This document shows, one piece after another, positions 1,985-59,770 of a DNA stretch of 64,000 nucleotides. A program made the translations under genes and the position numbers. The notes beneath the pieces are model-generated. The model saw only the letters and a program-made list of their open reading frames with translations. It had not been told where the DNA came from and did not search any database. Origin of the DNA: Anolis carolinensis (Eukaryota); NCBI RefSeq assembly GCF_035594765.1, contig NC_085843.1:145305971-145369970 (forward strand). Direction: 5' to 3'. Position 1 is the stretch's first letter; each line of letters begins with the position of its first letter.

Positions 1985-2852
1985 TGTCAAGACCCAGGCT
2001 ACAGAACACCAATAACCATGCGCAGAGGCCAGATTCTATCTAATATCTTTATTAAAGGAATATATAAAGTCAATAAAAACAAGTGAAGAATATAGTTCAG
2101 AAGTAGACCTTTCAGGAAAGGTCAAATATAGTCCAGGAAAATAATGTCCAATATGTGATATTAGAGTCCAAAGTTATAATCCACTAACCGAAACACACAC
2201 TTTGCCAAGCAATAGTGTGGGGAGATGACAAGGTCTTTTAGTCCATTGAAGCTTGACAACAAGGCTGGAAAACAAACTCGATTCTTGGCTAGAACAAGAC
2301 TTGAAACGGGGCAAACAAGAAGCAAGAACAAGGTCCGCGGTGAGGTCCGCGACAAAACTTGAAACAAGGCAGGCTTGGAACTTGGTCCGGGAAACAAGGA
2401 ACTGGGGTTACGAAGTCCACACACGATCTCACTCCTCAAGCTGACAAGTTGACTCCGCAAGGTTTCCTTTGCGGGGAAACTCCTAAATAGGGTCTCGCTT
2501 CCCGCCAGAAGAACACTTTCCCTGGAGAACGAGAAGTGAAACCCAACTCTGTCTAGATGCATGACTCCTTAGAATTTCCCAAGGGAAGCAGACCTAATCA
2601 GCTAGTTGTTTGGCTGCGATTCTGAGGCTCCGGCGATTAGCCTCCCTGGCTCCTCTATCTCTATTATAATTGTCCTTTCGGGAAAATGGGGGAGAATTCT
2701 GCCCAAGGCTTGTTTGGCTGACTTCTTGAGGGCAAACATCCTCCAGGTGCAGGGGCTCCGATTCTGGCTGAACCGGTGGAAATCCCATGTTTTCCTCCTC
2801 GTCTGCCACAATAGTACTAGGAACGGGACTACAAGGCCCATTAGACATCACA
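1985..2852 (-). mobile_element. Solo LTR, family A (Gypsy-like), 868 bp
   Basis: TG...CA termini; 5-bp TSD GCTAG (1980-1984, 2853-2857); minus-strand AATAAA near 2048-2053; closely similar copy at 34095-34982. Confidence 0.95.
2594..2851 (-). CDS. Putative LTR(U3)-encoded acidic peptide or pol read-through tail with RRSLRIAA motif
   Basis: Frame is open from LTR base 2. Same length (258 nt) and open in the second copy (34724-34981). Motif is shared with other LTR families in the window. Confidence 0.45.
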   Translation of the reverse strand: MMSNGPCSPVPSTIVADEEENMGFPPVQPESEPLHLEDVCPQEVSQTSLGQNSPPFSRKDNYNRDRGAREANRRSLRIAAKQLAD

Positions 2853-10296: not shown

Positions 10297-11310
10297 TAGG
10301 GTTGGGCATGGATCAGTTTGAATGAAAGTTATTTGTAAAATTTGGTGGTTCGATTTGTAAGGTAAAGGTAAAGGTTTTCCCCTCATATTAAGTCTAGTCG
10401 TGTCCGACTCTGGGGGTTGGTGCTCATCTCCATTTCTAAGCCAAAGAGCCAGCATTGTCCGTATGACTGCATGAAGTGCCAATACCTTCTTGCTGGGGCA
10501 ATGCCTATTGATTTACACAAATTTGCATGTTTTCGAACTGCTTGGTTGGCAGAAGCTGGGGCTAACAGTGGGAGCTCATCCTGCTCTCTGAATTTGAACT
10601 GCCAACCTTTCAGTCAGCAAGTTCAGCAGCTGAGTGATTTAACCTGGTGCATCACCAGCTGCTCCTTGATATCCCCAAAAACAGGATTGGGGGGAGGGAC
10701 TGGAAAGCTGGCCGAAACAAATCAAGAAAGCAGGATATTTCAGCTACTGGAAAGGATGTAGGTAAGTTTGCAATATACCTGAGGCAGGGATCTGCCATGG
10801 GGGCTCCTAGAAAAGATGGGATTAACTGAAGTGTCTTTTCTCTCTCCCTGGCAGTGGCATTTCTCCTGGAAAAGTTCCCTAGGTTCCTCCTCCAGAGATG
10901 GCCCTGCTGGGAAATCATTTTCCCAGCAACACTTGCATGGGGCAGGCATTAAAAAGTATCCGAGTTCCTCTCAGAGTGTGATGGAAATTGAAGTTCTTTT
11001 CTCTCTCTGTTTCTCAACCAATAAAAGGCCTGATTGTGTCTATGCTCTGATTGGCTGAGAATGGACACAGCTGGTGACTACAATCCCAAGAACCCTCTCT
11101 TATGCTTTGTCTTATTTGAAAAAATGTAATAGTAAAAACTCAAAATAATTCTAAAACATTGGTAGATTGGTGAATTGTTTTGAAACTTGGCAGGCCTGCA
11201 GTTGTAAATGGGGTCTAAAAGCGAGGTAGGTTTCCTGCAGATAGGCCTTAACATGACGGAGGATTGAGCTTCTAAATTTTCCCATTGTAGCCAATGGGCC
11301 CAATCTTTGC
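10297..11310. mobile_element. Non-autonomous hAT-like element (degraded), hosting a Sauria SINE
   Basis: Starts TAGGGTTGGGC. Internal blocks 10875-10950 and 11160-11210 are inverted homologues of 23052-23130 and 22765-22817. Confidence 0.5.
10359..10665 (-). mobile_element. Sauria SINE
   Basis: AAGGTAAAGGTAAAGGTTTTCCCC tail and a body matching the other copies, with an internal deletion. Confidence 0.9.
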
Positions 11311-17114: not shown

Positions 17115-17869
17115 TGTCACACCTCAGACTAGTTCACCTTGCTGTAGACACCAGGCAGCACACAGTAGATAGTCTTTTGTAATTTTATTGAGCAAAAGCA
17201 GAATATATATAGTATCAAAGCAGGCAGAAATATAGTTCCAAAAGTAGTTGCAAAATAGAGTCAGTAAATCCAATAATCCATAGACAAGAAGCAATAGTCC
17301 ATTCCCAAAGATACACAAATCCAAAGGTTACAAGGATTCACAAACAAGAATATATCCAAAGCAGAAGTAGCATGAAGACATAGACCACCCACCCTGATGA
17401 AGCGAGAATTTGCTTTGACAAAGATTTGCCCTTCAACACACTGTTTTAAAAGTAACCCAAAAATGCATTCTTTTTCCCTTCACTGGCCTCCTTTTCCCCA
17501 GCTAATCTAAGACTTCTCCATGGCATTCCTTTCCATTATAAACTATCAGCCCAAGAGAGCAACAGGCGTTCAGACTCACCCTGACCATCAAGGCCAAACT
17601 CCTCATTACCGTTATCTTGCACCTGAGCCTGAGCCTGAGACAGATCAAGCTCCTTATTTCCCATGGGAATCTTTCCTTGGTTCTCATCTGTGACAAGCTG
17701 CATCTGGAACTCATCAACAGGCTGCACTTCTGAACCAGCCTGTGTCTGAATTCCATAATTCCCCACAGCATCATCCTGAAACTCATCATGCATCCCATCA
17801 TCTGACATCTGCATCTGTAATCCAAAATCCCCTTCCTCATCTTCACTCCGGAACTGCTGCTGAGTCACA
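17115..17869 (-). mobile_element. Solo LTR, family B (Gypsy-like), ~755 bp
   Basis: TG...CA termini; minus-strand AATAAA near 17184-17189; acidic ORF from LTR base 2; flanks ATGTA/ATATG match only 3 of 5. Confidence 0.8.
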
Positions 17870-17972
17870 ATATGAAAATTTGGTCAAGATGGTCAAGTGA
17901 GGACAAAAGGGGATGGGGAATGTCAAGAGGTCTGTTGGAAATGAGGCAAGTGGAGTGTATAGCATATGGCTT

Positions 17973-33538: not shown

Positions 33539-35320
33539 TGTTGCACCCCAAGACAGCGCGAGCACCCAAAAACCAGGCAGGGACCAATATAACACACAAG
33601 CTGTTTATTGAAGCAGAGTATATATATGTCTATGCGCATTTAAGGTGGAAAGTCAGAGTAAGAAATAGTCCATAATATATAGTCTATTGCAATTCAGAAA
33701 GAGTTCATCAATGTCCAATTTGTAATCCACAAGTGGAGCTCGATAGCTTCCTTTAAGAAATCAAAGTTTGTCCATGAAACAATAGCAGGAACAAAGCGCT
33801 GCAAATCCATTTGAAAAGTCCAGTAGCAAAAACAAGGAAACAAGGTAAACAAGGCAGAGTCGATCTCAATTCAGGAACAAGGAAGTCACTGTAACAAGGC
33901 AAGGTCTACTCAGGAGTCGTGGCTTGACGCGGCTCACCTGGAACTGGGAACTCGGCACAGATTCAGGAGACAAGGCAAGGAGCTGGAAATTGGAACCTCT
34001 TCCGAGGAAAGGCAAAGTTGACACTGCAATGAGAATAGTGTGAGGAGTACTTTTAACAGAATCCCAAGTCTGCAAGAATTAGGGAGTACAGGGCTGTCAG
34101 GACCCAGGCTGCAGAGCACCAATAACCATGCGCAGAGACCAGAATCTATCTAATATCTTTATTAAGGAAATATATAAAGTCAATAAAAACAAGTGAAGAG
34201 TATAGTTCAGAAGCAGACCTTTCAGATGAGGTCAAATATAGTCCAGGAAAATAATGTCCAATATAAGATATTAGAGTTCAAAGTTATAATCCACTTGACC
34301 GAAACACACACTTTGCCAAGCAAAGTGTGGGGAAATGACAGGGTCTCTAAAGTCCAAGGTAGCTTGACAACAAGGCTGGAAAATAGGCTTGAATCTTGGC
34401 TAGATCAAACTTGAAACAAGGCAAACATGAAACAAGGACTGAGTCCATAGAAGTCCGTGAAACAAGGCAAGGCTGGAATCTTGATCCGTGAAACAAGGCT
34501 AGGTTGAAACTTGATCCGTGAAACAGGGAACTGGGTACGAAGTCTACACACGATCTCTCGCCTCAAGCTGAACAAATTGACTCCGCAAGGTTCCCCTTGC
34601 GGCAAAACCCCTATATAGAGTCTTGTTTTCCCGCCAATAGAACACTTTCCCTGGAGAACAAGAAGTGAAACCCAAACTGTGTCCAGATGCATGACTCCTT
34701 AGAATTTCCCAAGGGAAGCAGACCTAATCAGCTAATTGTCTGGCAGCGATTCTGAGGCTCCGGCGATTAGCCTCCCTCGCCCCTCTATCTCTATTATAAT
34801 TGTCCTTTCGGGAAAACGGGGGAGAATTCTGCCCAAGGCTTGTTTGGTTAACTTCCTGAGGACAAACATCCTCCAGGTGGCGAGGCTCCGATTCAAGCTG
34901 AACCGGTGGAAATCCCAAATTTTCCTCCTCATCTGCCACAATAGCACTAGGAACGGGACTACAAGGCCCATGAGACATCACAAGGGCCCACAAAGTCTCA
35001 TGGGAAAATTAATATTATCCAATTTGAGAGGGAGTCTCTTACTTCTTCTCACTCCTTGTTTCTTGCTCCTATCGTTTGTAACAAAATCTCTCTGATTAAA
35101 AGTTCCATTATTCCCCAAGTCTGTACCATCTGGTATGGGTAACACTGGAGAGATTTTGGAATGTTCGTCAATTAGCGGATCCTGTGATTCCACCATATCC
35201 AGCACCTGCAAGGCCATGGGGCCGGGAACTGAAGTAGGAATGTCCTCGAATTCCATCGCCTCATCTGTTTTTAATTCTAACTCTCGATGAAACCTGGGCT
35301 ATGATGGCTGAGCCACAACA
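33539..35320 (-). mobile_element. Solo LTR, family C (~889 bp after removing the nested LTR)
   Basis: TG...CA termini; perfect 5-bp TSD ATATG (33534-33538, 35321-35325); minus-strand AATAAA near 33604-33609. Confidence 0.9.
34095..34982 (-). mobile_element. Solo LTR, family A (888 bp), nested in the family C LTR
   Basis: TG...CA; 5-bp TSD AGGGC (34090-34094, 34983-34987); homologous to 1985-2852. Confidence 0.95.
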
Positions 35321-35392
35321 ATATGTAAATCAATATAAAGAATCATCTGCATACCCACGTAATCACCCTCTTCAGTTTTGTGCCCTCCATGG

Positions 35393-35774
35393 TGTTGTGT
35401 ACTCCTCTTCTGAGGAGGAGAAGGAGGTAGAATAGAAGGCCGAAGATGTAGGAATGGGGGATTTGAGGCCAAGTGTTGAGAAGGAAGAAGAGGGCAAAGA
35501 AAACATACTGCCGGTTCTTACATTCCAGGAATGCTGAAGGCCAAAAGAAGAAGGAGGGCAGTAGATTGGCTGCAAGGACACTGAGCAATCAGACTTTTTT
35601 CCAAATACTTTTGTTTCCTGTCTGATTTAAGACTTTTTGCTTTACTTTTGGAAATTACATTCTGTCCCCTTGCTGCTGTTTGTTACATTAACATCATTTT
35701 GCTGAAGTAAAGCTTTTTTTTTTTTAGTTACTTTAACCCTGTCTGTAAAGCTGTTCCTGGGGCAAAACAGGACA
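35393..35774 (+). mobile_element. Solo LTR, family D (382 bp)
   Basis: TGTTGTG...CAGGACA termini; perfect 5-bp TSD CATGG (35388-35392, 35775-35779); AGTAAA poly(A)-like signal near 35706. Confidence 0.85.
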
Positions 35775-59437: not shown

Positions 59438-59770
59438 GGGGCCCCTGGTGGCACAGTGTGTTAAAGCGCTTAGCTGCTGAACTTGTGGACTGAAAGGTGC
59501 CAGGTTCAAATCCCGAGAGCGGAATGAGCGCCTGCTGTTAGCCCCAGCTCCTGCCAACCAAGCAGTTCGAAAACATGCCAATGTGAGTAGATCAATAGGT
59601 ACCGCTCCGGCGGGAAGGTAACAGCACTCCATGCAGTCATGCCAGCCACATGACCTTGGGGGTATCTATGGACAACACCAACTCTTCAGCTTAGAAATGG
59701 AGATGAGCACCAACCCCCCGAGTCGGTCACGACTGGACTTAGTCAGGGGAAACCTTTACCTTTACCTTAC
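59438..59770 (+). mobile_element. Sauria SINE, full length, inside an L2-type tail
   Basis: Head GGGGCCCCTGGTGGCACAGTG; B-box GGTTCAAATCC; (ACCTTT)n tail; CCATGTGA on both flanks. Confidence 0.95.

Follow-up and report, generated by a model that had tools for sequence, protein, structure and literature searches.

[quoted passage not shown] The integrase is predicted to end with a chromodomain, an acidic linker and an RRSxR[LI]A motif and, judging from its residues, this motif probably holds the integration complex to the acidic patch of H2A-H2B (probability roughly 0.6). The tail is under purifying selection.

The window, a stretch of 64 kb, contains five LTR stretches, which are solo LTRs of self-priming Tf1/sushi-type chromoviruses. 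Their features are as follows:

1985..2852, minus strand: solo LTR of family A, copy A1; TG...CA ends, 5-bp target duplication GCTAG
2594..2851, minus strand: U3-encoded integrase C-terminal tail of A1; 85 codons plus stop, in phase with pol in full elements
2609..2635, minus strand: HMGN-like motif RRSLRIAAK of A1
2482..2489, minus strand: TATA-like box of A1 (predicted promoter), downstream of the tail stop codon
2449..2458, minus strand: 10-nt site of A1 that serves self-priming by complementarity to the primer-binding site; the RNA is predicted to start here
2048..2053, minus strand: polyadenylation signal of LTR A1
34095..34982, minus strand: second solo LTR of family A (copy A2), inserted into LTR C; 5-bp target duplication AGGGC
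34981-34724, minus strand: tail frame of A2, with motif RRSLRIAAR at 34765-34739
17115..17872, minus strand: solo LTR of family B; flanks without a clean target duplication
17871-17446, minus strand: tail frame of B, with a premature stop at 17538-17536 and motif WRSLRLAGE at 17520-17494
33539..35320, minus strand: solo LTR of family C, interrupted by A2; target duplication ATATG
from 35319, minus strand: tail frame of C, with a stop at codon 7 and motif RRSKRLPLK at 35049-35023
35393..35774, plus strand: solo LTR of family D, decayed and internally deleted; target duplication CATGG
from 35394, plus strand: tail frame of D, broken; SRLAAR at 35560-35577 in a shifted frame

The frame that begins at base 2 of A1 (2851-2594) comprises 85 codons with the C-terminal end RRSLRIAAKQLAD, and the corresponding frame of A2 has the same length and the end RRSLRIAARQLAD; both tails finish with RRSLRIAA[KR]QLAD before the stop. 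The first 55 residues of the family A tail are acidic and free of K and R, and the last 30 are basic with 9 K/R. An earlier sequence-only reading of the window had described the frame as free of indels between the two A copies, which is correct: the 20-bp length difference of the LTRs is the net of nine indels after the stop (one of 19 nt, eight of 1-2 nt). The same reading placed a base-2 frame in all four LTR families. This holds at the level of the families but not for the window copies of B, C and D, in which stops or a frameshift break the frame; within the window, only the two A copies retain an open tail. The D copy shows stops, a frameshift and an internal deletion when compared with locus L067. 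For B, the proposed frame was right but the LTR starts 3 nt further out, at 17872, in the same frame, and the WRSLRLAG motif is present but preceded by the premature stop.

Target duplications of 5 bp are found at A1, A2, C and D in the window and at most listed copies of families A, B and C. Three of the window LTRs lie within 2.3 kb (33539-35774): A2 sits in C just past the tail motif of C, and D follows 72 bp from C in opposite orientation. A1 is hosted by another dispersed repeat (1776-1982 and 2850-2928), copies of which occur near 10364, 29643 and 59438-59741.

Whether the frame belongs to the families can be read from further copies. LTRs were collected by DNA search (30 loci per family), duplicates and loci without a 5′ end were dropped, and the copies kept (30 for A, 28 for B, 29 for C and 19 for D) were read as they lie; for family A, 40 of 5607 first-look candidates in genome G000 were scored. 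An uninterrupted base-2 frame spans the entire tail in 27/30 copies of A, 11/28 of B, 11/29 of C and 5/19 of D, and each of the other two forward frames is open in 0-1 copies per family. Moreover, in all four families the base-2 frame has zero codon columns with a stop in more than half of the copies, compared with 2-18 such columns in the other two forward frames. RRSxR[LI] occurs in some forward frame in 26/30 (A), 9/28 (B), 22/29 (C) and 6/19 (D) copies, numbers that rise to 30, 19, 28 and 10 if one change in the six positions is allowed. Copies outside the window carry RRSARIAAR in D, RRSLRLAGK in B and RRS[QR]RLALK in C. In the six frames of the window the motif appears three times, always inside these LTRs, against 0.57 times per 64 kb in base-shuffled windows. 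The lack of obvious DNA similarity between the families in the tail region, noted from the window letters, is borne out (best E 0.03). As proteins, the A and C tails are alike (40% over 35 aa, E 2.5e-6 in a comparison of four sequences).

Complete elements show how the frame is used. Pairs of A LTRs at a distance of 5.3 kb delimit elements of 6.2 kb that contain gag and pol. In one of these (L033), Pfam detects gag, zinc knuckle, protease, RT, RNase H, integrase, SH3/GPY-F and a chromodomain (PF00385, E 9.5e-10, above the cut-off), the last at residues 700-748 of an open stretch of 860 aa whose end is the tail. Two of the three full-length A elements are in phase: in L032 and L033, pol crosses the G-rich tract, resumes at LTR base 2 and ends at the tail stop; in L031, a shorter G run shifts pol out of phase. 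A search with the chromodomain gave 30 loci; the phase is kept in 28 of them, the frame stays open as far as the motif region in 20, and 17 have the exact motif. Of 66 distinct junctions collected from G000, 63 are in phase and 52 open to the motif, in a set that was gathered by likeness to intact copies and therefore leans to young copies, which favours the in-phase count. The sequence-only reading had proposed that pol extends across the PPT and thereby acquires a tail from the 3′ LTR, and these natural junctions demonstrate it. Pol runs on into the LTR without a prior stop in family A and in close relatives of B and D. In a young subfamily, 49 of 150 matches lie within a 1261-aa open frame (hand count), and one of its members (L243) has an LTR pair that is 99.8% alike. 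The tail is already present, without annotation, in database proteins that carry the label Anolis carolinensis (P0001-P0006). Contigs of four runs that might be RNA cover the whole element, with low-depth joints (three in one run, one in another). Tandem elements or LTR-bearing blocks were seen at L151 and L152, at G000:C1:258869561-258880666 and at L043-L045, with spacings of about 5.5 kb, 5.4 kb and 20 kb.

MMTV sag and HIV nef are separate proteins encoded in the U3 of the 3′ LTR. By analogy, the lizard U3 had also been suggested to encode a small accessory protein of its own, made from its own start or from a spliced RNA. Family A has ATG triplets at codons 2 and 22 of the frame, and some database gene models fuse the A tail to other sequence (P0008, P0010 and P0065), as such a protein might lead one to expect. 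However, B, C and D begin with V-V and lack an initial ATG, the frame is continuous with pol in the 63 in-phase junctions, which a separate protein would not keep, and the layout of the LTR is unfavourable. In family A, LTR position 259 holds the tail stop, a TATA-like box follows near 364, and the RNA is predicted to start near 395; at position 395, 31 nt past the TATA-like box, 4/4 elements have the 10-nt self-priming complement. The frame thus stops some 135 nt upstream of where the RNA is predicted to start and is contained in the RNA only at the 3′ end, behind pol, which makes it an integrase tail and not a separate U3 gene. Hence, sag and nef share with the lizard elements the coding use of U3, but they are proteins in their own right whereas the lizard frame is the end of pol, and a separate accessory protein is very improbable. 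That the 5′ LTR and solo LTRs also carry the tail codons is due solely to the copying of U3 from the 3′ end. As for the three fused gene models (an ATPase, an RT-domain protein and an uncharacterised locus), all of which end in the family A tail, they represent solo LTRs modelled as last exons, which may be annotation artefacts or real exonisation.

An integrase tail encoded in this way could still be a neutral run-on of pol, or its open frame a by-product of constraint on promoter DNA. Across 10 pairs of A copies, dN/dS of the tail is 0.14-0.51, compared with 0.09-0.12 for the preceding 400 pol codons, so that the tail is much less constrained than the integrase. The tails of A1 and A2 in the window differ by 7 nonsynonymous and 13 synonymous changes (dN/dS 0.17, 0.05-0.41). 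A comparison of C with its sister set C2 (27/30 loci, found by protein search) gives a net dN/dS of 0.37 (0.23-0.60) for the tail and 0.18 for the last 32 codons, against 2.2 and 1.2 in the other frames. Further values are 0.26 for D v D2, 0.45 for D v D3 and 0.40 for B v L373. Some single comparisons of decayed copies give the weak or absent signal that a neutral frame would produce: B v L129 reaches 0.78 (0.47-1.24) and L373 v L129 1.03. The interval of A1 v Am touched 1 in one bootstrap (0.25-1.02). Variants shared within B, C and D have pN/pS of 0.54-0.67, not distinct from the other frames (0.57-1.01); they look mostly neutral, as expected after insertion. Nevertheless, dN/dS below 1 is confined to the base-2 frame. 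Indels in the tail between A subfamilies measure 15, 21 and 36 nt only, all of them frame-keeping, whereas indels of 1, 2, 4 and 5 nt are numerous elsewhere in the LTR. Furthermore, the motif is synonymously recoded between families, with serine as AGY in A, B and C and as TCN in D and arginines as CGN or AGR; this points to constraint on the protein rather than on the DNA. Neutral run-on and promoter constraint are both largely refuted by these data, and we regard them as hardly credible. The dN/dS and indel comparison across LTR copies that the sequence-only reading had called for thus comes out in favour of a coding tail, and the observations that it named as fatal (stops or frameshifts in the consensus, dN/dS of about 1, pol ending before the PPT) do not apply to family A.

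For B, C and D, the exact PPT-plus-LTR patterns yielded no junction of these families themselves, and relatives stand in for them. The B primer site was predicted from the self-priming site of family A, and 3/13 pattern matches carried it; of these three B-type LTRs, only L373 continues into gag-pol, and its junction is deleted. The true B LTR of L388 likewise has a deletion across the junction. Two B relatives (L387 and L389) are open from the chromodomain to RRSARLARK...GKRNA[FL]LGCF and the stop, the same ending as in B; L390 is in phase but with stops, and the junction of L386 is in phase. A D-type 5′ LTR stands ahead of gag and protease in L311, which has an 11-nt self-priming complement. 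Pieces of gag/pol lie behind 5′ LTRs of both the B and the D type. The junction of L377, a D-sister element, is in phase, and the tail of this element ends with RSARLAARN. In the C-like element L171, the same junction codons, E-E-G-D-S followed by V-V of the LTR, stand behind a decayed chromodomain; a frameshift upstream places this element among the three out-of-phase junctions. L125 is cut by an insertion.

An integrase tree of 31 rows (pieces shorter than 110 aa left out, three rows less than half filled) unites A, B, C-like and D2 in one clade with support 92/86, apart from fish and frog relatives; Sushi-ichi, Amn-ichi and L231 are outside this tree. The convergence implied by four families without DNA similarity thus gives way to a single lineage, in which the motif was most simply inherited once; four independent origins are unnecessary. 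L231, a chromodomain element, has no motif in any forward frame.

Next, we consider what the motif might do. When 16 family representatives are aligned on the motif, which leans the count in its favour, positions 2 and 3 are invariant and positions 1, 5 and 7 are kept at 81-88%, while 19 of the 20 preceding positions are at 44% or less. The motif is short, with A, L, R, K, Q, V or E at position 4 and with A at position 7 where HMGN has S. It lies about 100 residues behind the chromodomain, and the acidic linker between them varies freely in length. A tail that is a real part of the integrase could use its basic end as a nuclear import signal or as a general DNA/RNA-binding patch, with the likeness to HMGN being incidental. 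The 9 K/R among the last 30 residues suit such a role, as does the RGRP that follows the chromodomain in fish relatives, which makes a basic C-terminus common in the group. On the other hand, the serine is invariant and positions 6 and 7 keep a hydrophobic residue and alanine, respectively, while the surrounding basic residues vary. A classical nuclear import signal requires a lysine-led basic cluster, which is missing from most versions of the motif. Import or unspecific nucleic acid binding is accordingly an unlikely explanation.

An anchor on the acidic patch accounts better for the retained residues. The lizard tails read RRSARIAA, RRSARLA[RE], RRSLRIAA or RRS[QRK]RLAL. RRSAR is the part of HMGN2 seen by cryo-EM, with acidic-patch contacts through the second and fifth residues, and Dsup binds the acidic patch through RRSSR (PMC12487698); nucleosome binding of yeast Dot5, with the motif RRSARIAT, needs R6, R7 and R10 as well as the acidic patch (PMC13347269). 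RRSARIA in subfamily Ay and family D equals 7/8 residues of the Dot5 motif, RRSARLA in B2 and A4 agrees with HMGN through position 6, and RRSAR followed by L or I, as in the HMGN core RRSARLSA, occurs in several families. Lizard tails and the HMGN family have the RRS-x-R-hydrophobic core in common, but the tails contain no other HMGN region, and six tail sequences gave no Pfam match at E up to 10 and no match to HMGN. Moreover, HMGN is a small stand-alone chromatin protein whereas the lizard motif is the end of a retroelement Pol. By its residues, the tail is best classed as bearing an HMGN-like motif only; it is not a member of the HMGN family.

Structural searches add little to this comparison. 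A complex prediction of the 34-aa tail end with H2A-H2B of G000 scored 0.02 and counts neither for nor against binding; according to PMC12487698, predictors of this kind fail on HMGN2 itself. An Atlas search of the tail was also uninformative (best score 0.82), and a PDB sequence search with two tails gave best E values of 0.36 and 0.67. Profile searching of three A tails against 1.84 billion representatives returned 7 matches, among them four labelled Anolis (P0065, P0010, P0066 and P0070) and a repeat-rich protein (P0068).

RRS followed by R and a hydrophobic residue also suits basophilic kinase sites. The motif might accordingly be a phosphorylation or docking site for a non-histone host protein, a basophilic kinase or an adaptor, that regulates the integrase, and the invariance of its serine in 16/16 representatives fits this idea. 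Yet 14/16 representatives keep arginine at position 5, the residue that acts as anchor in HMGN2 and Dsup, and the best match among the tested motifs is Dot5. We regard a regulatory site of this kind as quite improbable.

If the tail acts as an acidic-patch anchor, the following sequence of events is feasible. Pol would be translated and the protease would leave the tail on the integrase. The two outer arginine positions would engage the acidic patch in the manner of HMGN2, Dsup and Dot5, while the chromodomain, which has F/W/F at the cage positions, would read a methylated histone tail. The motif could then hold the same or a neighbouring nucleosome, resulting in two-point capture or retention on chromatin, and its serine might permit release via phosphorylation.

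The elements described here have TG...CA LTRs, a 5-bp duplication, gag followed by PR-RT-RNase H-integrase, a chromodomain and self-priming, and the vertebrate V-clade (Sushi-ichi, Amn-ichi and Amn-san) is likewise built from gag, PR-RT-RH-IN and a C-terminal chromodomain with self-priming, TG...CA LTRs and a 5-bp duplication. Family A may be Amn-ichi itself, and a full-length anole chromovirus has reportedly been described earlier, in an account that may show the extended frame. In the literature on V-clade elements, whose self-priming is covered in PMC2774666 and PMC6317226, we found no description of a U3-encoded tail or of the motif. A polyprotein that runs on into the 3′ LTR and has a targeting domain there is known from plant CRM group A and from some Reina elements (PMC3059260, PMC3605345). 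The lizard elements resemble CRM group A in this read-through. However, CRM group A elements carry the CR motif where the chromodomain would be and are primed by tRNA-Met, whereas the lizard tail is added behind the chromodomain of self-priming elements and, unlike the CR motif, is a short arginine motif without a Pfam match.

Short arginine motifs are also employed by the CBS of foamy virus Gag, KSHV LANA, HCMV IE1 and MLV p12, and the lizard version would likewise hold the incoming genome on nucleosomes. According to a review (PMC9040877), the arginine anchor of foamy virus Gag shapes integration sites and MLV p12 probably also holds chromatin from Gag; retrotransposons go unmentioned in this review (0 occurrences). 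The viral acidic-patch tethers sit in Gag or in nuclear antigens, whereas the lizard motif is in the integrase. Reading of pol into the 3′ LTR is known from plant CRM, and for an HMGN-like or acidic-patch motif in a retrotransposon integrase we found no paper in a search that had subscription journals and Repbase notes outside its range. The combination of a CENP-C motif with an integrase returned 0 papers.

The PPT pattern search also retrieved a separate lineage (100/100 in the tree; L172, L182, L224, L226, L228, L234, L238, L246 and L247), whose integrase has no chromodomain and runs into the LTR in the same phase. In its tail, a unit made up of a helix-like stretch, an acidic linker and FxGF occurs once or twice (IREILTAPTEDETFEGF is an example), and dN/dS of the tail is 0.32 in one pair. 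Intact database proteins (P0197-P0199, from clusters of 46, 4 and 75 members) end in the same way. LEDGF/HRP2 is an H3K36me reader that HIV integrase hijacks. PMC9987994 defines the motifs bound by LEDGF and HRP2 by a helix, an acidic linker and FxGF, and the tails of the FxGF lineage appear to resemble these TND-interacting motifs. The acidic stretch of families A-D (DEEENLGF and similar) was considered as an FxGF motif and rejected; the first phenylalanine is absent in A. Tentatively, and with some doubt, U3 might be regarded as an exchangeable chromatin-targeting cassette of vertebrate sushi-type integrases, in which each lineage mimics a different short host motif, namely an HMGN-type anchor in A-D and a LEDGF/HRP2-type FxGF in the sister lineage.

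More distant relatives differ in their tails. Fish proteins (P0017, P0018, P0020, P0022, P0032, P0094-P0099 and others) have RGRP, which we take to be AT-hook-like, right after the chromodomain. It precedes a G-G-G-[SNT]-V junction, behind which a short tail, often ending in SP[ED][YF], apparently comprises only about 20-40 aa as judged from protein only. These tails suggest that LTR read-through might be general in the group. A frog protein (P0108, Leptobrachium), one among 109 new matches, has GVRRSRRL after the chromodomain like family C, and a plant gypsy protein (P0194, Hibiscus) ends in EPRRSARVKKTPQALTDF, hinting that RRSxR tails may be spread more widely among integrases.

The choice of chromatin targets by vertebrate LTR retrotransposons has been little studied beyond the chromodomain, and a 9-residue motif at the end of the integrase, kept across a radiation of families, allows a peptide-level test of acidic-patch binding. 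If the anchor reading is true, an integrase would use the acidic patch in a way known to date from Gag and herpesvirus proteins, HMGN-like motifs as in HMGN, Dsup and Dot5 would extend to mobile elements, and the design of plant CRM, with a targeting domain written in the LTR, would recur in vertebrates. Thousands of solo LTRs would then each represent a ready-made nucleosome-binding exon. Should the cassette reading hold as well, the tails encoded by their LTRs would direct two related lineages of the same genome to opposite chromatin.
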